Origin: Escherichia phage vB_EcoM_SYGD1
Sequence record: MW883059
Length of the DNA stretch: 64,000 nt
Reading direction: 5' to 3' (one strand)
Position numbers and translations under genes: made by a program. Below are positions 9,273 through 44,637 of the stretch, in pieces; the stretch's first letter is position 1, and every line of letters starts with the position of its first letter. The notes under the pieces are model-generated. The model did no database searches and was not told the origin of the DNA. It saw only the letters and a list, made by a program, of their open reading frames with translations.

Positions 9273-11969
9273 ATGAAAGAATTTTATATCTCTATCGAAA
9301 CAGTCGGAAATAATATTGTTGAGCGTTATATTGATGAAAACGGAAAGGAACGTACTCGTGAAGTAGAATATCTTCCGACTATGTTTAGGCACTGTAAGGA
9401 AGAGTCAAAATACAAAGACATTTATGGTAAAAACTGTGCTCCTCAAAAATTTCCATCAATGAAAGATGCACGAGATTGGATGAAACGAATGGAAGACATC
9501 GGTCTCGAAGCTCTCGGTATGAACGATTTTAAACTCGCTTATATCAGTGATACATATGGTTCAGAAATTGTTTATGACCGAAAATTTGTTCGTGTAGCTA
9601 ACTGCGACATTGAGGTTACTGGCGATAAATTTCCTGACCCAATGAAAGCAGAATATGAAATTGATGCTATCACTCATTATGATTCAATTGACGACCGTTT
9701 TTACGTCTTTGATTTGTTGAATTCAATGTACGGTTCAGTATCAAAATGGGATGCAAAGTTAGCTGCTAAGCTTGACTGCGAAGGTGGTGATGAAGTTCCT
9801 CAAGAAATTCTTGACCGAGTAATTTATATGCCATTCGATAATGAGCGTGATATGCTCATGGAATATATTAATCTCTGGGAACAGAAACGACCTGCTATTT
9901 TTACTGGTTGGAATATTGAGGGATTTGACGTTCCGTATATCATGAATCGTGTTAAAATGGTTCTCGGCGAACGTAGTATGAAACGCTTCTCTCCAATCGG
10001 TCGAGTAAAATCTAAACTAATTCAAAATATGTACGGTAGCAAAGAAATTTATTCTATTGATGGCGTATCTATTCTTGATTATTTAGATTTGTACAAAAAA
10101 TTCGCATTTACTAATTTGCCATCATTCTCTTTGGAATCAGTTGCTCAACATGAAACCAAAAAAGGTAAATTACCGTACGATGGTCCTATTAATAAACTTC
10201 GTGAGACTAATCATCAACGATACATTAGTTATAACATCATTGACGTAGAATCAGTTCAAGCAATTGATAAAATTCGTGGGTTTATCGATCTAGTTTTAAG
10301 TATGTCTTATTACGCTAAAATGCCTTTTTCTGGTGTAATGAGTCCTATTAAAACTTGGGATGCTATTATTTTTAACTCATTGAAAGGTGAACATAAGGTT
10401 ATTCCTCAACAAGGTTCGCACGTTAAACAGAGTTTTCCAGGTGCATTTGTATTTGAACCTAAACCGATTGCTCGTCGATACATTATGAGTTTTGACTTGA
10501 CATCTCTGTATCCTAGCATTATTCGTCAGGTTAACATTAGTCCTGAGACTATTCGTGGACAGTTTAAAGTTCATCCAATTCATGAATATATCGCAGGAAC
10601 AGCTCCTAAGCCAAGTGATGAATATTCTTGCTCTCCGAATGGATGGATGTATGATAAGCACCAAGAAGGTATCATTCCAAAGGAAATCGCTAAAGTATTT
10701 TTCCAGCGTAAAGATTGGAAAAAGAAAATGTTCGCCGAAGAAATGAATGCCGAAGCTATTAAAAAGATTATTATGAAAGGTGCAGGGTCTTGTTCAACTA
10801 AACCGGAAGTTGAACGATATGTTAAGTTCAATGATGATTTCTTAAATGAATTATCAAATTACACCGAATCTGTTCTTAATAGTCTGATCGAAGAATGTGA
10901 AAAAGCAGCTACACTTGCTAACACAAATCAGCTGAACCGTAAAATTCTTATTAACAGTCTTTATGGTGCTCTTGGTAACATTCATTTCCGTTACTATGAT
11001 TTGCGAAATGCTACTGCTATCACAATTTTTGGTCAAGTTGGTATTCAGTGGATTGCTCGTAAAATTAATGAATATCTGAATAAAGTATGTGGAACTGATG
11101 GTGAAGATTTCATCGCAGCAGGTGATACTGATTCGGTATATGTCTGCGTAGATAAAGTTATTGAAAAAGTAGGTCTTGACCGCTTTAAAGAACAAAATGA
11201 TTTAGTTGAATTTATGAATCAGTTTGGTAAGAAAAAGATGGAACCTATGATTGATGTTGCATATCGTGAGTTATGTGATTATATGAATAACCGCGAGCAT
11301 CTGATGCATATGGACCGTGAAGCTATTTCTTGCCCTCCACTTGGTTCAAAGGGTGTTGGTGGATTTTGGAAAGCGAAAAAACGTTATGCTCTGAACGTTT
11401 ATGATATGGAAGATAAACGATTTGCTGAACCGCATCTAAAAATCATGGGTATGGAAACTCAACAGAGTTCAACACCAAAAGCAGTACAAGAAGCTCTCGA
11501 AGAAAGTATTCGTCGTATTCTTCAGGAAGGCGAAGAGTCTGTCCAAGAATACTACAAGAACTTTGAGAAAGAATATCGTCAACTTGACTATAAAGTTATT
11601 GCTGAAGTAAAAACCGCGAACGATATAGCGAAATATGACGATAAAGGTTGGCCAGGATTTAAATGCCCGTTCCACATTCGTGGGGTGCTAACTTATCGTC
11701 GAGCTGTTAGTGGTTTAGGTGTAGCTCCAATTTTGGATGGAAATAAGGTAATGGTTCTTCCATTACGTGAAGGAAATCCATTTGGTGACAAGTGCATTGC
11801 TTGGCCATCAGGCACAGAACTTCCAAAAGAAATTCGTTCTGATGTACTGTCTTGGATTGACTACTCAACTTTGTTCCAAAAATCGTTTGTTAAACCGCTT
11901 GCGGGTATGTGTGAATCGGCGGGTATGGACTATGAAGAAAAAGCTTCGTTAGACTTCCTGTTTGGCTGA
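9273..11969 (+). CDS. 43: gp43 DNA polymerase (family B) with 3'-5' exonuclease domain
   Basis: 898 aa; Exo I motif VANCDIEV, polymerase motif A DLTSLYPS, motif C GDTDSVY. Confidence 0.95.
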   Translation: MKEFYISIETVGNNIVERYIDENGKERTREVEYLPTMFRHCKEESKYKDIYGKNCAPQKFPSMKDARDWMKRMEDIGLEALGMNDFKLAYISDTYGSEIVYDRKFVRVANCDIEVTGDKFPDPMKAEYEIDAITHYDSIDDRFYVFDLLNSMYGSVSKWDAKLAAKLDCEGGDEVPQEILDRVIYMPFDNERDMLMEYINLWEQKRPAIFTGWNIEGFDVPYIMNRVKMVLGERSMKRFSPIGRVKSKLIQNMYGSKEIYSIDGVSILDYLDLYKKFAFTNLPSFSLESVAQHETKKGKLPYDGPINKLRETNHQRYISYNIIDVESVQAIDKIRGFIDLVLSMSYYAKMPFSGVMSPIKTWDAIIFNSLKGEHKVIPQQGSHVKQSFPGAFVFEPKPIARRYIMSFDLTSLYPSIIRQVNISPETIRGQFKVHPIHEYIAGTAPKPSDEYSCSPNGWMYDKHQEGIIPKEIAKVFFQRKDWKKKMFAEEMNAEAIKKIIMKGAGSCSTKPEVERYVKFNDDFLNELSNYTESVLNSLIEECEKAATLANTNQLNRKILINSLYGALGNIHFRYYDLRNATAITIFGQVGIQWIARKINEYLNKVCGTDGEDFIAAGDTDSVYVCVDKVIEKVGLDRFKEQNDLVEFMNQFGKKKMEPMIDVAYRELCDYMNNREHLMHMDREAISCPPLGSKGVGGFWKAKKRYALNVYDMEDKRFAEPHLKIMGMETQQSSTPKAVQEALEESIRRILQEGEESVQEYYKNFEKEYRQLDYKVIAEVKTANDIAKYDDKGWPGFKCPFHIRGVLTYRRAVSGLGVAPILDGNKVMVLPLREGNPFGDKCIAWPSGTELPKEIRSDVLSWIDYSTLFQKSFVKPLAGMCESAGMDYEEKASLDFLFG

Positions 11970-11981
11970 TAGAATAAATCT

Positions 11982-12004
11982 AGGGACCTCCGGGTCCCTT
12001 TTTC
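11982..12004 (+). terminator. intrinsic terminator hairpin (AGGGACC-TCCG-GGTCCCT + T5)
   Basis: Perfect 7-bp GC-rich stem and T-tract immediately after the gene 43 stop. Confidence 0.6.
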
Positions 12005-12086
12005 ATACAAGTAATATAAATCTATACTTAGGAAAAATAGGTGATTCTGGACCTCTGGAATTCATTAAAATTTTTTTCACAAAACT

Positions 12087-12116
12087 GTTTACATCCCTGT
12101 TCTTCCGTGGTACTAT
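12087..12116 (+). promoter_or_regulatory. T4-type early promoter (-35 GTTTAC, 18-nt spacer, extended -10 TGgTACTAT)
   Basis: GTTTAC at 12087-12092, TACTAT at 12111-12116, AT-rich UP-like tract upstream; followed by a conserved leader and RBS GGAG before the ATG at 12151. Confidence 0.6.
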
Positions 12117-12150
12117 ACAACTATCAACTGATACGGATTTGGAGAATAAA

Positions 12151-12531
12151 ATGAAAATCGCTATTTTGGTTATTGCATTGGGTCTTACTGGTTGTGTAGC
12201 TCAAGGACCGGTAGTAAATCAATCTGATGTAGGAAAAATTGTAAACTGTTCAAGCAAATTTTATAATCCTAATGTTAAGTGTTATAAAGAAGCTCCAAAA
12301 CAGACAGTAGAACAAATGCAGGCGAATTTTGACGAAGCTATTCGCCCAGATGAATCTGCTCAAGCATATCGTAATTCGGATATAATTACACGCGAAGAAA
12401 AAATTGAAAACTACTGTGCTGAACTTTGGGCAAATTGGGCTAATAATTACCAATGGCGTACTGGTAAAAATGCTCCGATGGAGTATGTAGTGAATTCTTA
12501 TAATTCATGCGTAAAAAATTTGACTAAGTGA
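12151..12531 (+). CDS. putative lipoprotein (signal peptide with lipobox LTG-C)
   Basis: MKIAILVIALGLTGC is a typical lipoprotein signal and lipobox; own promoter and RBS. The track ORF 11962..12531 is an in-frame read-through of the promoter and leader, not the real N-terminus. Confidence 0.55.
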   Translation: MKIAILVIALGLTGCVAQGPVVNQSDVGKIVNCSSKFYNPNVKCYKEAPKQTVEQMQANFDEAIRPDESAQAYRNSDIITREEKIENYCAELWANWANNYQWRTGKNAPMEYVVNSYNSCVKNLTK

Positions 12532-12538
12532 GGAAAAG

Positions 12539-12790
12539 ATGGAAACTTTAGTAGCAGGTTCAATTTTTATGGTTTTAGTTTCAGGCGTGTTGGCTATTAT
12601 TATATACATGCTTCCATGGTTCATCGCCTTGATGCGTGGGTCAAAATCGACAGTAGGAATCTTTTTCACATCTTTACTGTTTAACTGGTCAATTATTGGT
12701 TGGTTTATTACCTTTATTTGGTCAATTGCAGGTGAAACTAAAAAATCTGCACAGCAAAATCAAGTAATTATCATCAGAGAGAAGGAATGA
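12539..12790 (+). CDS. imm: Imm superinfection immunity membrane protein
   Basis: 83 aa with two hydrophobic helices; size and position between 43 and 42 match T4 Imm. Confidence 0.75.
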   Translation: METLVAGSIFMVLVSGVLAIIIYMLPWFIALMRGSKSTVGIFFTSLLFNWSIIGWFITFIWSIAGETKKSAQQNQVIIIREKE

Positions 12791-12943
12791 AAAGCAAAAT
12801 TTTAACAGTATTGCTTTTAATCTTGATGATTATAATAAGTATATACTATAGCGTAACGGTTCCTTGTATGATTCCGACACTTATTATAGGTTGGGGTTTA
12901 TTACTGTTACAAGTTAAATATGAATGTATCAATTGAGGTTTAA

Positions 12944-13684
12944 ATGATTAGTGACTCTATGACAGTTGAAGAAATCCGTCTTCATTTGGGGCTTGCATTA
13001 AAGGAAAAAGATTTCGTAGTTGATAAAACTGGCGTTAAAACTATTGAAATTATTGGCGCATCATTTGTAGCAGATGAACCGTTTATTTTTGGCGCTCTTA
13101 ATGATGAATACATTCAGCGTGAACTTGAATGGTATAAATCTAAAAGTTTGTTTGTTAAAGATATTCCGGGTGAAACACCAAAGATTTGGCAACAGGTAGC
13201 ATCTTCTAAAGGCGAAATTAACTCGAATTATGGTTGGGCTATCTGGTCAGAAGATAACTATGCCCAGTATGATATGTGTTTAGCTGAGCTTGGTCAAAAT
13301 CCTGATTCTCGACGTGGTATCATGATTTATACTCGTCCATCCATGCAATTTGACTACAATAAAGATGGCATGTCAGATTTCATGTGTACGAATACAGTAC
13401 AGTACCTGATTCGTGATAAGAAAGTCAATGCAGTAGTTAACATGAGAAGTAATGATTGTTGGGCAGGCTATCGTAATGATTATGCATGGCAAAAATACGT
13501 ATTAGATAAATTAGTATCTGATTTGAATACAGGCGACCCGTCGCGGCAATATAAAGCAGGTTCTATTATATGGAATGTTGGAAGTCTTCATGTGTACGAA
13601 AATCAATTTTATTTAGTTGACCATTGGTGGAACACCGGTGAAACTCACATTGCTAAAAAGGATTATACCGGAAAATGGAAGTAA
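12944..13684 (+). CDS. 42: gp42 dCMP hydroxymethylase
   Basis: 246 aa, thymidylate-synthase-like fold; same length and position as T4 gp42. Confidence 0.9.
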   Translation: MISDSMTVEEIRLHLGLALKEKDFVVDKTGVKTIEIIGASFVADEPFIFGALNDEYIQRELEWYKSKSLFVKDIPGETPKIWQQVASSKGEINSNYGWAIWSEDNYAQYDMCLAELGQNPDSRRGIMIYTRPSMQFDYNKDGMSDFMCTNTVQYLIRDKKVNAVVNMRSNDCWAGYRNDYAWQKYVLDKLVSDLNTGDPSRQYKAGSIIWNVGSLHVYENQFYLVDHWWNTGETHIAKKDYTGKWK

Positions 13685-14316
13685 ATGTTCCACATGTTTA
13701 TAAGTATAAACATCCTAAAACTAAAAAGTGGTATATAGGAAGTCATGATGGTCACAACCCGAATTATGATGGTTCGGGTGTAGTTTGGCAGCATGCTAAA
13801 AAGAAATATGGAATAAAATCCTTTAATAAAGAAATATTATATGAAGGACCGATGTTTAGACAAGTTGAAGAAATTATTTTAACTTGTTTAGATGCTGCTA
13901 ATTGCCCGGATTCATATAATTTAAAGAATGAAGCGTGGGGAGGAAGTTTTCCAGGTAAATTAAATGGAATGTACGGTAAGAAACTATCTCCAGAAGAAAG
14001 ATATAAATGTGGAAATGCCTTTCGTGGAATCAAGCGTCCTGATCATTCTAAAAGAATGAAAGGCGAAGGTAATCCAATGTATGGTAAAAATGAGCAGGCA
14101 TATGGAATTATAAATCGAGCAAAGGAAAATTCTGGTAAAACTTATGAAGAAATTTTTGGCGCAGAAAAAGCTAAAATAATTAAAGAAACGATGTCTAAAA
14201 ATCGTAAAGGAAAACCTCATAATTTGATAGAAAAAATATGTCCGCATTGCGGACTAAAAGGACGTGGGCCAAATATGACAAGATACCATTTTGACAAATG
14301 TAAGGCACTTAAATGA
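13675..14316 (+). CDS. GIY-YIG homing endonuclease (Seg-like) with C-terminal zinc finger
   Basis: N-terminal GIY-YIG motifs VYKYKH ... KKWYIGSH; C-terminal CPHCGLKGRGPNMTRYHFDKC; start overlaps the gene 42 stop. Confidence 0.7.
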   Translation: MEVNVPHVYKYKHPKTKKWYIGSHDGHNPNYDGSGVVWQHAKKKYGIKSFNKEILYEGPMFRQVEEIILTCLDAANCPDSYNLKNEAWGGSFPGKLNGMYGKKLSPEERYKCGNAFRGIKRPDHSKRMKGEGNPMYGKNEQAYGIINRAKENSGKTYEEIFGAEKAKIIKETMSKNRKGKPHNLIEKICPHCGLKGRGPNMTRYHFDKCKALK

Positions 14317-15155
14317 TTCAATTCGTAATTCCAAGCTATCAACGCGTAGGGGCAGTTTCTGCCCTTGATATGTTTCCATCTGATTATGAACCACATATTG
14401 TAGTACGTGAACACGAAGAAAAAGCTTATTATGATGCTTATGGGTCTAGAGCTAAAATTATAACTATTCCTGATGATGTCAATGGAATTGCTGGTACTCG
14501 TAAAGCGATTACTGATATGTATGCAGGTCAACGAATTTGGATGATCGATGATGATACTACTATTCGTATGAGTTCAATGCGAAAGAAAGATGATCGTCGC
14601 TGTGTAGATAAAATTAATCAGTTAACCCGTGAACAGTTCTATGAATTGATTCAATACGTTGAAGATGCTATGGATTGCGGGTATTATCATGGTCATGCTC
14701 GTCTACCTATTTTTAAAATTACTTCATCTTGGGGTAATTATCGTGAAAATTCATATGGATTCACGAATACATGGTATGACCTCGGGAAACTTACAACAGA
14801 ACAAATTGGGTATGGAAAAATTGATTTATGCGAAGATATGTATGCATTTCTCAATTTAATTAATCAAGGTTATCCGCATTTGGCTTTGTTCAAATATCTG
14901 GTTGTGTCTGGAAAAGCACAAGCTCCTGGCGGATGTAGTTCAATTCGTAGTAATTCAAAACATAATAGAGCTCTTGAGCAAATCAATAGAGAGTTTCCAG
15001 AGCAAGCTCGTTGGAAAACATCGAATATTGAAAAGAGAAAATCGTTGGGTGAAGAAGACGAGCCATTAAAGGTTCTTCGTATGTGTGTTTCACGTAAAGA
15101 AAAGTCAGAAGCATTTCATAAGTTTAATGCTATTCATCCAATAGCAGTTGATTAA
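14313..15155 (+). CDS. putative DNA-modifying glycosyltransferase (GT-A-like, DxD motif), not T4-type beta-gt
   Basis: 280 aa with WMIDDDTTI; occupies the T4 beta-gt position between 42 and uvsX but does not resemble T4 beta-gt (351 aa) as I recall it. Confidence 0.5.
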   Translation: MIQFVIPSYQRVGAVSALDMFPSDYEPHIVVREHEEKAYYDAYGSRAKIITIPDDVNGIAGTRKAITDMYAGQRIWMIDDDTTIRMSSMRKKDDRRCVDKINQLTREQFYELIQYVEDAMDCGYYHGHARLPIFKITSSWGNYRENSYGFTNTWYDLGKLTTEQIGYGKIDLCEDMYAFLNLINQGYPHLALFKYLVVSGKAQAPGGCSSIRSNSKHNRALEQINREFPEQARWKTSNIEKRKSLGEEDEPLKVLRMCVSRKEKSEAFHKFNAIHPIAVD

Positions 15156-15173
15156 TGCCTAAATTTATTGTGT

Positions 15174-15179
15174 TATAAT
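15174..15179 (+). promoter_or_regulatory. extended -10 promoter element (TGT-TATAAT) upstream of uvsX
   Basis: TGTTATAAT read directly; no clear GTTTAC -35 at standard spacing. Confidence 0.35.
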
Positions 15180-15232
15180 TACCCTATCTTTAACCAGTGA
15201 GGAAAATATAATGATGCCTATGGAAAAAATGA

Positions 15233-16162
15233 ATGTCTATTGCAGATTTAAAATCCCGTTTGATTAAAGCTTCCACTTCTAAAATGACTGCTGAACTGAC
15301 TACATCTAAATTCTTTAATGAAAAGGATGTAATCCGTACAAAAATCCCAATGCTTAATATCGCTATTTCCGGTGCGATTGATGGCGGTATGCAGTCTGGT
15401 TTAACTATTTTTGCAGGTCCTTCTAAACACTTTAAATCAAATATGTCTTTGACTATGGTTGCGGCGTATTTGAACAAATATCCTGACGCGGTTTGTCTAT
15501 TTTATGATAGCGAATTTGGTATTACTCCAGCTTATTTGCGGTCCATGGGAGTTGACCCTGAACGAGTAATTCATACGCCAATTCAGTCAGTTGAACAACT
15601 GAAAATTGATATGGTGAATCAGCTTGAAGCTATCGAGCGCGGTGAAAAAGTTATTGTATTCATCGACTCAATCGGTAATATGGCTTCTAAGAAAGAAACG
15701 GAAGATGCCTTGAATGAAAAATCTGTGGCAGATATGACTCGTGCTAAATCACTGAAGTCATTATTCCGTATTGTTACTCCTTATTTTAGTATTAAAAACA
15801 TTCCATGTGTTGCGGTTAACCATACAATTGAAACAATTGAAATGTTTAGTAAAACCGTGATGACAGGTGGTTGTGTTATTGCTGGTACTAAAATCCAGAT
15901 GTCCGATGGTTCTACTAAAGCAGTTGAAGATATTCGTCCAGGTGAGCGTGTTAAAACCATGGTCGGTGATAATGAAGTAACTTATGTTTGGGACCCCGAA
16001 ACTCTGGCTGAAGGTACTCCTGAATGTTTCGAAATTGAATTCGAAGACGGTTATAAAGTAACTACTTCAGATACTCACAAGTTCCTGGTAATGGTTAAAG
16101 ACATTCCAACTTGGGTTGAAGCTAAAGATTTAGTAGCTGGAATGGATTGTGTTGTAAGGTAA
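15233..16162 (+). CDS. uvsX: UvsX recombinase N-terminal fragment (residues 1-213) fused to an intein N-half (96 aa), then stop
   Basis: The first 213 aa are near-identical to T4 UvsX as I recall it (Walker A GPSKHFKS). From Cys214 (nt 15872) the sequence CVIAGTKIQ...TSDTHKFLV...MDCVVR has intein block A/B character and ends at tandem TAA TAA stops. Confidence 0.85.
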   Translation: MSIADLKSRLIKASTSKMTAELTTSKFFNEKDVIRTKIPMLNIAISGAIDGGMQSGLTIFAGPSKHFKSNMSLTMVAAYLNKYPDAVCLFYDSEFGITPAYLRSMGVDPERVIHTPIQSVEQLKIDMVNQLEAIERGEKVIVFIDSIGNMASKKETEDALNEKSVADMTRAKSLKSLFRIVTPYFSIKNIPCVAVNHTIETIEMFSKTVMTGGCVIAGTKIQMSDGSTKAVEDIRPGERVKTMVGDNEVTYVWDPETLAEGTPECFEIEFEDGYKVTTSDTHKFLVMVKDIPTWVEAKDLVAGMDCVVR

Positions 16163-16165
16163 TAA

Positions 16166-16207
16166 ATATGGGTACCGGACTAATGTATATTTTTGAGGTA
16201 CCCATAT
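16166..16207 (+). promoter_or_regulatory. perfect 11-bp hairpin (ATATGGGTACC / GGTACCCATAT) sequestering the RBS and start codon of the endonuclease gene
   Basis: The 3' arm (16197-16207) covers the last GG of the GAGG Shine-Dalgarno and the AT of the ATG at 16206; 20-nt loop; AATAAATA (16161-16168) immediately 5' resembles a late promoter. Confidence 0.55.
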
Positions 16208-16928
16208 GAATTTTGTCTATAAAATTGTGTTCAACGATAGAATTAAAAACGGCACTCCGCCATATTACTACATAGGGAGCAAGACAAATGCTTCTTATGT
16301 AGATGGTAAGATTATTGACGCCCACGGTCGTGAGTACTATGGCTCATCGAGATATCCCGGATATCATGATTTTATCAATAATGTTACTGTTGAAATATTG
16401 GAGCAATATGATGATATTAAACACACTAAACTGCTAGAGCGCGAAAATTTCTATCAGAAACAAGTAAATGTTAAAACAAATCCAGATTATTTTAATTTAG
16501 ATTATGCTTGTGGGCATAATTCATATGCTAATGCTGATTTTGCATCATACAAGCATTATATAACAGGTAAATGTATTCGTCTTGAAAGAAACCATCCGCT
16601 TGTTAAATCTGGTGTGTATGTTGGCGTCACAAAAGGCGTGAAATCTTCTGATGAACACCGTAAGCACATATCAGAAGGTATTACCGGAGAAAACAATGGG
16701 TTCTATGGTAAGAAACACACTAAAGAAACAATTAATAAAATATCAGAAAAAGCAAAGAAAAGATTAAAGCATTCCCATCCTAGACAAAAAGGTGTTATCA
16801 TAAACGGTATTGAATACCGGGGCGTCAGACCTGCTGCAAGAGCGTTGGGAATTAATCCTAACACAATTATCAACAAAATTAAAGCTAATATAAAAGGATG
16901 GGCTTATGCAGTAGATGCACGCGGTTAA
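16206..16928 (+). CDS. free-standing GIY-YIG homing endonuclease (Seg-like) located between the two uvsX fragments
   Basis: 240 aa; GIY-YIG motifs FVYKIVF ... PPYYYIGSK; own RBS; different reading frame from the upstream uvsX fragment; paralogous to the ORF at 60053..60685. Confidence 0.75.
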   Translation: MNFVYKIVFNDRIKNGTPPYYYIGSKTNASYVDGKIIDAHGREYYGSSRYPGYHDFINNVTVEILEQYDDIKHTKLLERENFYQKQVNVKTNPDYFNLDYACGHNSYANADFASYKHYITGKCIRLERNHPLVKSGVYVGVTKGVKSSDEHRKHISEGITGENNGFYGKKHTKETINKISEKAKKRLKHSHPRQKGVIINGIEYRGVRPAARALGINPNTIINKIKANIKGWAYAVDARG

Positions 16929-17036
16929 GGCATTCGAAGATATGGTAAAAGAATTTGGAATGAACATGACAATCAAGATTATGCTTTCATGAAATATGTA
17001 TATTGAAACTAGCTACTACGAAACACAAGGTAAAGT

Positions 17037-17684
17037 ATGAAAATTAAATCTGTTAAATCTGTTGGTAAAAAAGAAGTCTATGATTTGTCTGTTGCTGACG
17101 TCGAGCATTATGTTTTAGAAAATGGTATCGTTACACACAACACAGGCGTAATGTATTCGGCTGATACTGTGTTCATTATCGGTAAGCGTCAGATTAAAGA
17201 TGGTTCTGATCTTCAAGGGTATCAATTTGTTCTAAATGTAGAAAAATCTCGTACCGTTAAAGAAAAAAGTAAATTCTTTATTGATGTTAAATTTGACGGT
17301 GGTATCGATCCTTATTCTGGATTGTTAGATATGGCTCTAGAATTAGGATTTGTAGTAAAACCTAAAAATGGCTGGTATGCTCGTGAATTTCTTGACGAAG
17401 AAACCGGCGAGATGATTCGCGAAGAAAAATCTTGGCGTGCAAAAGATACCAATTGCACTACATTCTGGGGTCCTTTATTTAAGCATCAACCATTCCGAGA
17501 TGCTATTAAACGTGCTTATCAGTTAGGTGCTATTGATAGTAATGAAATTGTTGAAGCTGAAGTTGATGAATTGATTAACTCAAAGGTTGAAAAATTTAAA
17601 TCTCCAGAAAGTAAAAACAAATCAGCAGCTGATTTAGAAACTGACCTAGATCAGTTAAGTGATATGGAAGAATTTAATGAATAA
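17037..17684 (+). CDS. uvsX: intein C-half (35 aa) fused to the UvsX recombinase C-terminal fragment (180 aa)
   Basis: After ...IVTHN the sequence TGVMYSADTVFIIGKRQIKDG...SDMEEFNE matches the T4 UvsX C-terminal half as I recall it; RBS AAGG precedes the ATG at 17037. Confidence 0.85.
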   Translation: MKIKSVKSVGKKEVYDLSVADVEHYVLENGIVTHNTGVMYSADTVFIIGKRQIKDGSDLQGYQFVLNVEKSRTVKEKSKFFIDVKFDGGIDPYSGLLDMALELGFVVKPKNGWYAREFLDEETGEMIREEKSWRAKDTNCTTFWGPLFKHQPFRDAIKRAYQLGAIDSNEIVEAEVDELINSKVEKFKSPESKNKSAADLETDLDQLSDMEEFNE

Positions 17685-18015
17685 AGATGATTTAGATTTA
17701 GAAATTATCGACGAATCCCCCTCTTCGGAGGGGGAAGAAGAAAGAAAAGAACGTCTTTTTAATGAATCCCTTAAGATAATTAAATCTGCCATGGAAAATG
17801 TTATCCAGGAGATTATCATTAAACTAGAAGATGGTTCTACACACATTGTGTATGTGACAAAATTAGATTGGGTTGATGGAAAAGTCGTAATGGACTTTGC
17901 TGTTCTTGACCAAGAAAGAAAAGCTGAGTTAGCTCCTCATGTAGAAAAATGTATTACAATGCAACTACAAGATGCATTTAATAAAAGGTCAAAGAAAAAA
18001 TTTAAATTCTTTTAA
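17659..18015 (+). CDS. 40: gp40 head-vertex assembly protein
   Basis: Position between uvsX and 41; the track start is GTG, an alternative ATG start at 17677 overlaps the uvsX stop. Confidence 0.55.
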   Translation: MIWKNLMNKDDLDLEIIDESPSSEGEEERKERLFNESLKIIKSAMENVIQEIIIKLEDGSTHIVYVTKLDWVDGKVVMDFAVLDQERKAELAPHVEKCITMQLQDAFNKRSKKKFKFF

Positions 18016-18024
18016 GGAGTAAGT

Positions 18025-19452
18025 GTGGTAGAAATTATTCTTTCTCATCTCATATTTGATCAAGCTTATTTTTCAAAAGTTTGGCCATATATGGATTCAG
18101 AATATTTTGAAAGTGGTCCAGCTAAAAATACATTCAAATTAATTAAATCTCATGTTAATGAGTACCATAGCGTTCCATCTATTAATGCGTTAAATGTTGC
18201 ATTAGAAAATAGTTCATTTACTGAAACAGAATATTCTGGTGTAAAAACACTTATTTCAAAACTAGCCGATTCTCCGGAAGACCACAGCTGGTTAGTAAAA
18301 GAAACAGAAAAATATGTTCAGCAAAGGGCGATGTTTAATGCTACGTCTAAAATAATTGAAATTCAAACTAATGCTGAGCTTCCTCCGGAAAAACGCAATA
18401 AGAAAATGCCGGATGTTGGTGCTATTCCTGACATCATGCGTCAAGCATTATCAATTTCATTTGATAGCTACGTTGGCCATGATTGGATGGATGACTATGA
18501 AGCACGTTGGCTATCTTATATGAATAAAGCTCGTAAGGTTCCATTTAAACTCAAAATTCTAAATAAAATTACTAAAGGCGGAGCTGAAACTGGAACACTG
18601 AACGTTTTAATGGCTGGTGTTAACGTTGGTAAGTCATTAGGTCTGTGTTCATTGGCAGCAGATTATTTACAGCTCGGTCATAATGTTCTTTACATTTCCA
18701 TGGAAATGGCAGAAGAAGTCTGTGCTAAACGTATTGACGCTAATATGCTCGATGTTTCTCTTGATGACATTGATGATGGGCATATTTCTTATGCTGAGTA
18801 TAAAGGAAAAATGGAAAAATGGCGTGAGAAATCTACTCTCGGCCGTTTAATCGTTAAGCAATATCCTACTGGTGGAGCAGACGCTAATACATTTCGATCG
18901 CTTTTAAACGAATTAAAGCTCAAGAAGAATTTTGTTCCAACAATCATTATTGTTGACTATCTAGGTATTTGTAAATCTTGCCGCATCAGAGTTTACTCAG
19001 AAAATAGTTACACAACTGTTAAAGCCATTGCAGAGGAATTGCGTGCTCTGGCTGTTGAAACCGAAACTGTTCTTTGGACTGCAGCACAGGTTGGTAAGCA
19101 AGCTTGGGATTCTTCTGATGTTAACATGAGCGATATTGCAGAATCTGCCGGTCTTCCAGCAACAGCCGATTTTATGCTTGCGGTCATTGAAACCGAGGAG
19201 TTAGCAGCTGCTGAACAACAACTAATTAAGCAAATCAAATCACGATATGGTGATAAGAATAAATGGAATAAGTTTTTGATGGGTGTTCAAAAAGGAAATC
19301 AGAAATGGGTAGAAATTGAACAAGATTCTACTCCAACTGAAGTTAACGAAGTAGCAGGTTCACAGCAGATTCAGGCTGAACAGAACCGCTATCAAAGAAA
19401 CGAATCCACCCGAGCTCAGTTAGATGCTTTGGCGAATGAATTAAAATTTTAG
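18025..19452 (+). CDS. 41: gp41 replicative DNA helicase (DnaB-like)
   Basis: 475 aa as in T4 gp41; Walker A GVNVGKS, Walker B IIIVDYLG. Confidence 0.9.
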   Translation: MVEIILSHLIFDQAYFSKVWPYMDSEYFESGPAKNTFKLIKSHVNEYHSVPSINALNVALENSSFTETEYSGVKTLISKLADSPEDHSWLVKETEKYVQQRAMFNATSKIIEIQTNAELPPEKRNKKMPDVGAIPDIMRQALSISFDSYVGHDWMDDYEARWLSYMNKARKVPFKLKILNKITKGGAETGTLNVLMAGVNVGKSLGLCSLAADYLQLGHNVLYISMEMAEEVCAKRIDANMLDVSLDDIDDGHISYAEYKGKMEKWREKSTLGRLIVKQYPTGGADANTFRSLLNELKLKKNFVPTIIIVDYLGICKSCRIRVYSENSYTTVKAIAEELRALAVETETVLWTAAQVGKQAWDSSDVNMSDIAESAGLPATADFMLAVIETEELAAAEQQLIKQIKSRYGDKNKWNKFLMGVQKGNQKWVEIEQDSTPTEVNEVAGSQQIQAEQNRYQRNESTRAQLDALANELKF

Positions 19453-40761: not shown

Positions 40762-40791
40762 GTTTACATACCACAAGGACTGTGGTACTAT
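40762..40791 (+). promoter_or_regulatory. T4-type early promoter (GTTTAC-N18-TGgTACTAT) with conserved leader
   Basis: GTTTAC 40762-40767, TACTAT 40786-40791; leader ACAACTATCAACTGATGCGGATTTGGAGAATAAA-ATG. Confidence 0.6.
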
Positions 40792-40825
40792 ACAACTATC
40801 AACTGATGCGGATTTGGAGAATAAA

Positions 40826-41032
40826 ATGTTTACTACAGCTGAATTAAAACGAGCAAAAGCTAAGAAAGGGCAAGGAAAATATAAAGCTGAATTAGTTAAA
40901 GAACTTCAGTTTGCTGAGGCTGAATTGAATTCAATGATTATTCAAAATGCTCCAGAAACTGAAATTGCTCTTAAACGTATTGTGAATAAGTGTCTTCGTG
41001 ATGCAATCGTCGATCTTTTAGCGGATTATTGA
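40826..41032 (+). CDS. hypothetical small protein
   Basis: ATG at 40826 after the conserved leader; the track start at 40727 reads through the promoter. Confidence 0.4.
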   Translation: MFTTAELKRAKAKKGQGKYKAELVKELQFAEAELNSMIIQNAPETEIALKRIVNKCLRDAIVDLLADY

Positions 41033-44407: not shown

Positions 44408-44553
44408 GTCCATTCATAGGTATTACAAGCGCTGCATTAGTATCTGGTGGCATTTTACTAGCGGGTTTAGGTGTTGTTCCAGCTGTAGCAGGAGGTCTTC
44501 TTGCGTTCGGCATTCAACGTGTTATCATGACAGTTATCACAGTCATGCAGTAA
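44404..44553 (+). CDS. small hydrophobic Gly/Ala-rich membrane peptide (52.1 position)
   Basis: 49 aa; ATG overlaps the gene 52 stop (ATGA). Confidence 0.3.
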   Translation: MSPFIGITSAALVSGGILLAGLGVVPAVAGGLLAFGIQRVIMTVITVMQ

Positions 44554-44557
44554 TTTT

Positions 44558-44585
44558 AGGGAGAGCCGAGGCTCTCCCTTTTTAT
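44558..44585 (+). terminator. intrinsic terminator (AGGGAGAGCC-GAG-GCTCTCCCT + T-tract)
   Basis: 10-bp perfect stem followed by TTTTTATTTT. Confidence 0.6.
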
Positions 44586-44607
44586 TTTAAAATTTTTTCA
44601 CAAAACG

Positions 44608-44637
44608 GTTTACAACCAAAGCATACTGTGGTACTAT
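44608..44637 (+). promoter_or_regulatory. T4-type early promoter (GTTTAC-N18-TGgTACTAT) with conserved leader, upstream of motA
   Basis: GTTTAC 44608-44613, TACTAT 44632-44637; leader ACAACTATCAACT... Confidence 0.6.

Follow-up and report, generated by a model that had tools for sequence, protein, structure and literature searches.

Imm.1, a predicted lipoprotein encoded next to imm in T-even-type phages: a conserved gene neighborhood and a possible role in superinfection exclusion

In the T-even phages, the transfer of DNA from superinfecting T-even phages is stopped by Imm, a protein of the inner membrane. How Imm does this has remained unresolved since its description in the late 1980s and early 1990s, and for Spackle (gp61.3) a structural mechanism is now available. 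Both proteins are early, are located in the envelope, and are restricted to T-even-type phages; Imm is integral to the inner membrane, while Spackle is soluble, a small helical protein of the periplasm (PMC7677548). Llp of phage T5 and Cor of phages T1 and phi80 are small phage lipoproteins with disulfides, which are made soon after infection and reside on the periplasmic face of the outer membrane (PMC9586334; bioRxiv 10.64898/2026.03.26.714494). Finally, promoter-early stem-loops (PeSLs) are regulatory cassettes of T4-type phages (Arbiol 2010, PMC2839356; Comeau 2014, PMC4122927). Here we compare with these systems a locus within a stretch of 64,000 nucleotides from Escherichia phage vB_EcoM_SYGD1 (sequence record MW883059; hereafter, the window), in which the gene imm.1, lying between the DNA polymerase gene 43 and imm, is predicted to encode an early lipoprotein. 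We put at roughly 45% the probability that its product, Imm.1, assists the Imm exclusion module from the periplasm, tethered to the outer membrane, and does so at a stage later than adsorption. The gene is already catalogued, and literature testing its function was not found; what the present analysis adds is a conserved imm.1-imm neighborhood, with or without orf49 and the spackle gene (sp), and a case against receptor masking.

The window comes from a T4-like phage of the genus Tequatrovirus. Its segment 11900-13000 matches 532 phage records at 90-99% identity, and its gene order (44, 62, regA, 43, imm.1, imm, 42) is that of T4. The imm.1 coding sequence occupies positions 12151-12531 on the + strand, which also carries the features described below from gene 43 through gene 42, and its ATG start codon is at 12151 rather than 12152. 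The product of 126 amino acids is 98% identical over 125 residues (123/125) to T4 Imm.1 (NP_049661; UniProt P18057), matches the Pfam profile PF17578 (DUF5481) over its full length, positions 1-103, with 238.3 bits where the cut-off is 27 (E 1e-71), and matches PHROG 1754, whose label is "function unknown"; searches of NCBIfam, PADLOC, and Rfam gave nothing meaningful. In T4, imm.1 has the same place between 43 and imm and the same terminator, promoter, and leader. The T4 protein differs in its lipobox, which is LAGC rather than the LTGC of the window, both being valid, and the window protein has one additional C-terminal Lys. The open reading frame (ORF) pointed out in an earlier reading of this DNA (the original prediction) is therefore no unrecognized feature; it is the orthologue of T4 imm.1. 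Nor is this copy unusual, the gene being present and annotated in hundreds of T4-like genomes.

A literature search found no paper that tests the function of Imm.1, the relevant mentions being limited to PMC5885020 and the omics tables of PMC9697503. The former treats Imm.1 as a protein found specifically in the T4 group and offers speculation on a role in exclusion. The latter provides transcriptome and proteome tables for T4 (supplementary files 4 and 6) in which imm.1 is early for both RNA and protein ("early-RNA_early-Protein"), in keeping with the early expression that had been predicted. In RefSeq, Imm.1 carries the name "iduronate sulfatase" in T4 (NC_000866, L002 4637-5014), RB18, IME339, and IME340; this name has no Pfam, NCBIfam, or PHROG support and is probably an annotation-transfer error.

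Its translation shows that imm.1 encodes a precursor bearing a lipobox and a signal of the signal peptidase II type (LGLTG followed by C), in line with the original prediction of a lipoprotein signal at the start of the ORF. The N terminus, MKIAILVIALGLTGC, is a textbook signal of this kind: residues 1-14 form the signal peptide (M-K-IAILVIALG-LTG-C15), and the lipobox L-T-G-C, which ends with Cys15 (12184-12195), fits [LVI][ASTVI][GAS]C. We infer that Cys15 is lipidated. The residue at +2 is V in the window and V, G, A, S, or Q across lineages, but never D; under the Lol rule for Enterobacteriaceae, by which outer-membrane lipoproteins have no Asp at +2, the predicted destination is the outer membrane. 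A lipobox is found in 10 of 11 full-length lineage representatives (including Dhakavirus WG01 and Yersinia phage P8), and the lipobox Cys in 20 of the 21 full-length rows of a 22-row family alignment (A9). In the exception, P0005, a signal peptidase I-type signal replaces the lipobox, and export is thereby retained.

The mature cysteines are C33, C44, C89, and C120. Only Tyr38 and Cys120 are strictly invariant across the 22 sequences of A9; C89 is missing from one member, and C33 and C44 are gained or lost jointly. Thus, the lipobox and the C-terminal cysteine pair are nearly invariant while the remaining sequence has diverged to 15-45% identity, a pattern that indicates a protein predicted to be exported, disulfide bonded, and usually anchored in the outer membrane. 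An AlphaFold2 model of Imm.1 (mean pLDDT 69) has a C-terminal domain of four helices, which is confidently modeled (residues ~50-126 at pLDDT >70), and a disordered N-terminal tether. Comparison of this model with solved structures, by sequence or fold, gave no informative match; hits in a profile search of the PDB (YecR, FlgP, and other unrelated lipoproteins) were driven by the signal peptide only and were rejected.

The proposed link to exclusion rests on where the gene lies in other phages. By direct search the Imm.1 family is very small, and all of its known members come from phage-like sequence: exhaustive searching with HMMER among 1.84 billion representatives yielded 6 Imm.1 clusters and a profile search 20. 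With tblastn, 501 phage records, essentially all of them T4-like (Tequatrovirus), match at 95% identity or above, T4 and T6 Imm.1 each being 98.4% identical to the window protein, and 155 Mosigvirus records match at ~33%. Inspection of gene neighborhoods then added distant Imm.1-type members that Pfam had missed. In 8 of 8 T-even-type lineages inspected, the gene for an Imm.1-type lipoprotein adjoins a PF14373 imm gene; two gene orders occur, and the genes occupy at least two different positions in the genome. In the window, T4, and the lineages designated L005 and L007, imm.1 and imm lie in that order between genes 43 and 42; in lineage L008, imm.1, imm, and orf49 follow a frd.3-like gene and precede gene 42. 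In Escherichia phage ST0, a Mosigvirus (L003 2495-3530), imm.1, imm, and sp are found together between the 41/dmd side and the primase gene 61, each of the three with its own GTTTAC early promoter, and the Mosigvirus slot after gene 43 holds unrelated genes. The statement that the RB69 group lacks Imm.1 (PMC5885020) is ruled out by this Mosigvirus homologue, which is 36% identical and simply occupies another locus.

More distant members follow the same rule. A lipoprotein of 146-148 amino acids is encoded directly 5' of imm in Gelderlandvirus, Moonvirus, Klebsiella T4-likes (148 records), and Muldoonvirus; in profile-profile comparison these proteins score a probability of 96.8% (E 2.7e-10) at full length and 75% (E 2.6e-5) when only the mature parts are compared. 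Dhakavirus WG01 and Yersinia phage P8 have a permuted order, namely imm, orf49, and then a gene for a lipoprotein of ~166 amino acids. We had considered Dhakavirus and P8 to be cases of Imm without Imm.1; this was ruled out by the homologous lipoprotein, which lies just 3' of imm-orf49. Outside the T-even group, the Imm-like genes of a Vibrio phage and of an Acinetobacter phage have no adjoining lipoprotein gene. Because the imm.1-imm adjacency survives both relocation and permutation, a shared function explains it better than shared timing.

Given this neighborhood, we infer that Imm.1 and Imm take part in one process. The small helical domain of Imm.1, which one or two disulfides would brace, would be held in the periplasm on a tether of some 30 poorly ordered residues. 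Imm.1 would not hide the receptor but would act once adsorption has occurred, for example on the incoming tail tip, on ejected proteins, or on the contact site at which DNA crosses. The exclusion set would then span the envelope: Imm.1 would occupy the outer membrane, Spackle the peptidoglycan, and Imm the inner membrane. Imm.1 resembles Imm and Spackle in being early, restricted to T-even-type phages, and, as predicted, located in the envelope; it adjoins imm wherever examined, is near both imm and sp in Mosigvirus, and, like Spackle, is modeled as small and helical. It differs from both in having no sequence or fold similarity to either and in its putative lipid anchor. The rapid divergence of Imm.1 between genera fits the recognition of phage rather than of conserved host components.

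A bolder form of this idea, which we advance tentatively and consider rather doubtful, is that Imm.1 is the missing outer-membrane or periplasmic part of a three-layer T-even exclusion barrier whose genes form one island in Mosigvirus. As the fastest-evolving member of such a barrier, it would set which incoming phages are excluded (in genus-specific exclusion, for example, as of RB69 against T4) by recognizing tail-tip or ejected proteins, and orf49, coding for a small membrane protein that lacks annotation, could be a fourth member. If Imm.1, and possibly the orf49 product, were obligate or modulating partners of Imm, the result would be a concrete handle in the form of a three- or four-gene set. 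If true, a post-adsorption lipoprotein would also join the known phage exclusion factors, which so far are mainly receptor blockers. In practical terms, the finding changes little.

Several points weigh against a role for Imm.1 beside Imm. Lu and Henning reportedly found in 1989 that imm alone, on a plasmid, excludes T4; if so, Imm.1 is dispensable for the core effect. Direct contact between the two proteins is geometrically awkward, with one at the outer membrane and the other in the inner membrane with little periplasmic mass. Adjacency in a compact phage genome can reflect common timing and not common function, and the homology of the 146-166-amino-acid lipoproteins depends on profile scores that are weak once the signal peptide is removed. 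Furthermore, the structure model is only moderately confident and has no informative fold, and in the literature no experiment tying Imm.1 to exclusion was found and no phenotype is described.

A serious rival, although we judge it unlikely, is that Imm.1 has an envelope function apart from exclusion and lies next to imm only because both are needed in the first minute after infection. Imm.1 could, for instance, stabilize the envelope, resist lysis from without, tune lysis inhibition, or neutralize a host envelope enzyme or stress response. The conserved export and disulfide signals would suit such a role, as would the location of imm.1 as the first gene behind an early promoter, and Imm itself is pleiotropic, affecting lysis from without and the collapse of lysis inhibition (PMC6832632). 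A separate role would also agree with the reported ability of imm to bring about exclusion by itself. Timing, however, leaves unexplained why imm remains the neighbor after relocation in Mosigvirus and permutation in WG01 and P8, when dozens of other early genes were available, and the fast divergence of the protein speaks against a conserved host target.

It seems improbable that Imm.1 serves instead to exclude unrelated competitors, either heterologous phages or colicins that cross the envelope. An early-made protein predicted to be an outer-membrane lipoprotein, from a family that is phage restricted and fast evolving, would be well placed for this task. However, the gene is strictly linked to imm, and the targets known for Imm are T-even phages, which favors the homologous case. 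The high conservation of Imm.1 across the T4-like genus, in which hosts and competitors are varied, lends the idea no support.

Even less probable is masking of the kind attributed to T5 Llp or T1/phi80 Cor, in which Imm.1 would bind the periplasmic face of a receptor and block further adsorption. The T-even phages use different receptors, namely OmpC/LPS for T4, FadL/OmpF for T2, and Tsx for T6, yet Imm.1 is as close to the window protein in T6 as in T4 and is at least 95% identical over the 501 records noted above; its sequence does not track the receptor. Imm.1 does look the part, in that it is a small, early protein with the predicted features of an outer-membrane lipoprotein and disulfides, and Llp is likewise a lipoprotein on the periplasmic side of the outer membrane, where a disulfide joins its Cys11 and Cys58 (PMC9586334). 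However, the resemblance goes no further: no similarity of Imm.1 to Llp, Cor, or any solved structure was found in sequence or fold, and its gene is accompanied by 43, imm, orf49, and 42 rather than by a receptor-binding-protein gene, whereas llp adjoins the gene for the receptor-binding protein pb5 (PMC9586334). Moreover, what T-even exclusion prevents is translocation of the genome, "without blocking secondary adsorption," and lysis inhibition depends on such adsorption (PMC6832632). An Llp-type model is therefore disfavored by the near identity in T4 and T6, the unblocked adsorption, the gene context, and the lack of similarity to Llp. Thus, of the two roles first put forward for this ORF, exclusion gains from the adjacency to imm in every T-even-type lineage examined, while receptor masking is disfavored.

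The remaining rival, that imm.1 is a nonfunctional filler ORF carried by a mobile promoter-terminator cassette, has in its favor a variable slot flanked by PeSL-type elements (PMC2839356) but is effectively refuted already, since window and T4 differ at 12 synonymous versus 2 nonsynonymous codons, the reading frame, lipobox, and cysteine pair persist at identities as low as 15-35%, and the protein is detected early in T4 proteomics.

At this locus, two early transcription units of the T4 type meet. Upstream lies gene 43 (9273-11969), an 898-amino-acid ORF annotated as DNA polymerase in the matching records. The gene 43 unit (45-44-62-regA-43) stops at an intrinsic-terminator-like hairpin, AGGGACC-TCCG-GGTCCCT followed by TTTTT (11982-12004), and about 100 nucleotides on, a canonical T4 early promoter opens a new unit with imm.1 as its first gene. 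The stem-loop itself (11982-11999) begins 12 nucleotides past the end of gene 43, has 7 pairs, 5 of them G-C, and has a calculated stability of -14.5 kcal/mol (z -2.6 versus shuffles). A hairpin is present at the equivalent site in T4 and in L005 and L007, two diverged lineages in which Imm.1 is just 33-41% identical. Comparison of T4 and these two lineages found compensatory change at 0 of the 7 pairs, and the support for the terminator is solely thermodynamic and positional.

The early promoter (12087-12116) reads GTTTACA, 17 nucleotides, and TG-g-TACTAT, with the -35 TTTACA at 12088-12093, an extended -10 TG at 12108-12109, and the -10 TACTAT at 12111-12116. The pattern GTTTAC-N15-19-TANNNT occurs at 21 sites in the window versus 4.1 expected, and the same pattern followed by ATCAAC at 5 sites versus 0.02 expected. 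This promoter is retained in T4, IME340, L005, and L007, and an equivalent one lies 5' of the Mosigvirus homologue. After the window promoter, at 12117-12150, come the conserved leader and the translation-initiation region (ACAACTATCAACTGATACGGATTTGGAGAATAAA), with the Shine-Dalgarno sequence GGAG at 12141-12144. Thus, the strong terminator after gene 43 and the early promoter with a conserved leader, both of which had been claimed at the outset, are borne out. What did not survive is the description of a self-contained cassette inserted between the polymerase gene and imm. There is no terminator 3' of the ORF, imm begins 7 nucleotides on, and the promoter heads a long early unit that includes the essential gene 42; as for insertion, no direction can be assigned, and the related phages display rearrangement rather than simple insertion.

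The arrangement resembles a PeSL in that a terminator stem-loop and a strong early promoter of the TTTACW-N17-TAYWAT type edge a slot after gene 43 that varies between genera. It differs in that the stem-loop and the imm.1 promoter are 87 nucleotides apart with a conserved block between them and so do not make one compact motif. A compact PeSL, with stem-loop and promoter together, is found in the window at 44547-44637. From the extended -10 to the ATG of imm.1, 46 of 47 positions are identical to those of a second site at 40781-40828. The two segments, 12106-12153 and 40781-40828, share a 5' untranslated and initiation region that precedes unrelated genes, and their -35/-10 spacers differ. 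The near identity of the leaders suggests gene conversion or recombination of a PeSL-type cassette, and such a copy elsewhere in the genome could support recombination; for this copy of imm.1, no shuffling event, mini-circle, or recombination product has been shown.

Between the terminator and the early promoter is an 11-nucleotide block, GTAATATAAAT (12011-12021), which is identical in the window, T4, L005, and L007 even though the flanking intergenic DNA has diverged across those lineages; between the window and T4 alone, the intergenic DNA has 92% column identity. The block agrees with the T4 late-promoter core, TATAAATA, at 7 of 8 positions, and the sole other exact copy of GTAATATAAAT in the window (60579) overlaps a perfect TATAAATA. 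The block may be a late promoter for imm.1-imm.

Downstream of imm.1 the genes are closely packed. The imm gene (12539-12790; 83 amino acids; superinfection immunity) matches PF14373 (Imm_superinfect, E 7.7e-16) and PHROG 1039. It starts 7 nucleotides past imm.1, and its Shine-Dalgarno sequence, GAGGA (12530-12534), overlaps the imm.1 stop codon. Next is orf49 (12787-12936), a conserved hydrophobic ORF of 49 amino acids (PHROG 3610, E 1e-25), the start of which overlaps the imm stop codon by 4 nucleotides (ATGA); its translation is coupled to that of imm. T4 has an intact orf49 (L002 4228-4377, - strand), for which NC_000866 has no annotation. In L008, Dhakavirus WG01, and Yersinia phage P8, imm is followed by a copy that has diverged but remains in frame, and in Mosigvirus, Gelderlandvirus, Moonvirus, and the Klebsiella T4-likes, no orf49 comes after imm. 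Gene 42 (12944-13684), encoding dCMP hydroxymethylase, begins 7 nucleotides past orf49 in the same unit. Since the + strand from 12117 to 19452 contains neither a terminator with a T-run nor a GTTTAC promoter, the early promoter serves some 7 kb of DNA, with imm.1 as the first gene of the unit and gene 41 as the last. The promoter-proximal position of imm.1 within this unit accords with a need for its product during the first minutes of infection.

Further along the window, uvsX (15233-17684) appears to be divided in two by a split intein, and between the halves stands a separate gene for a homing endonuclease, free of either. The ORF at 15233-16162 would encode the N-terminal part of UvsX, with the RecA domain, and then a Hint/intein-N-like tail (CVIAGTKIQ...) and a stop codon; that at 16206-16928 has NUMOD3 and NUMOD1 motifs; and that at 17037-17684 would start with an intein-C-like segment (...VTHN followed by T) and continue into the C-terminal domain of UvsX. 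The intein matches fall under the Pfam thresholds, and in T4 uvsX is intact. The region from gene 42 to uvsX (13675-15155) also differs from that of T4. Here, an ORF of 213 amino acids with a weak NUMOD3 motif, likely a homing endonuclease gene, overlaps the end of gene 42 and is followed by one for a 280-amino-acid glycosyltransferase of the TAGT family, in a place where T4 has beta-gt and segA.

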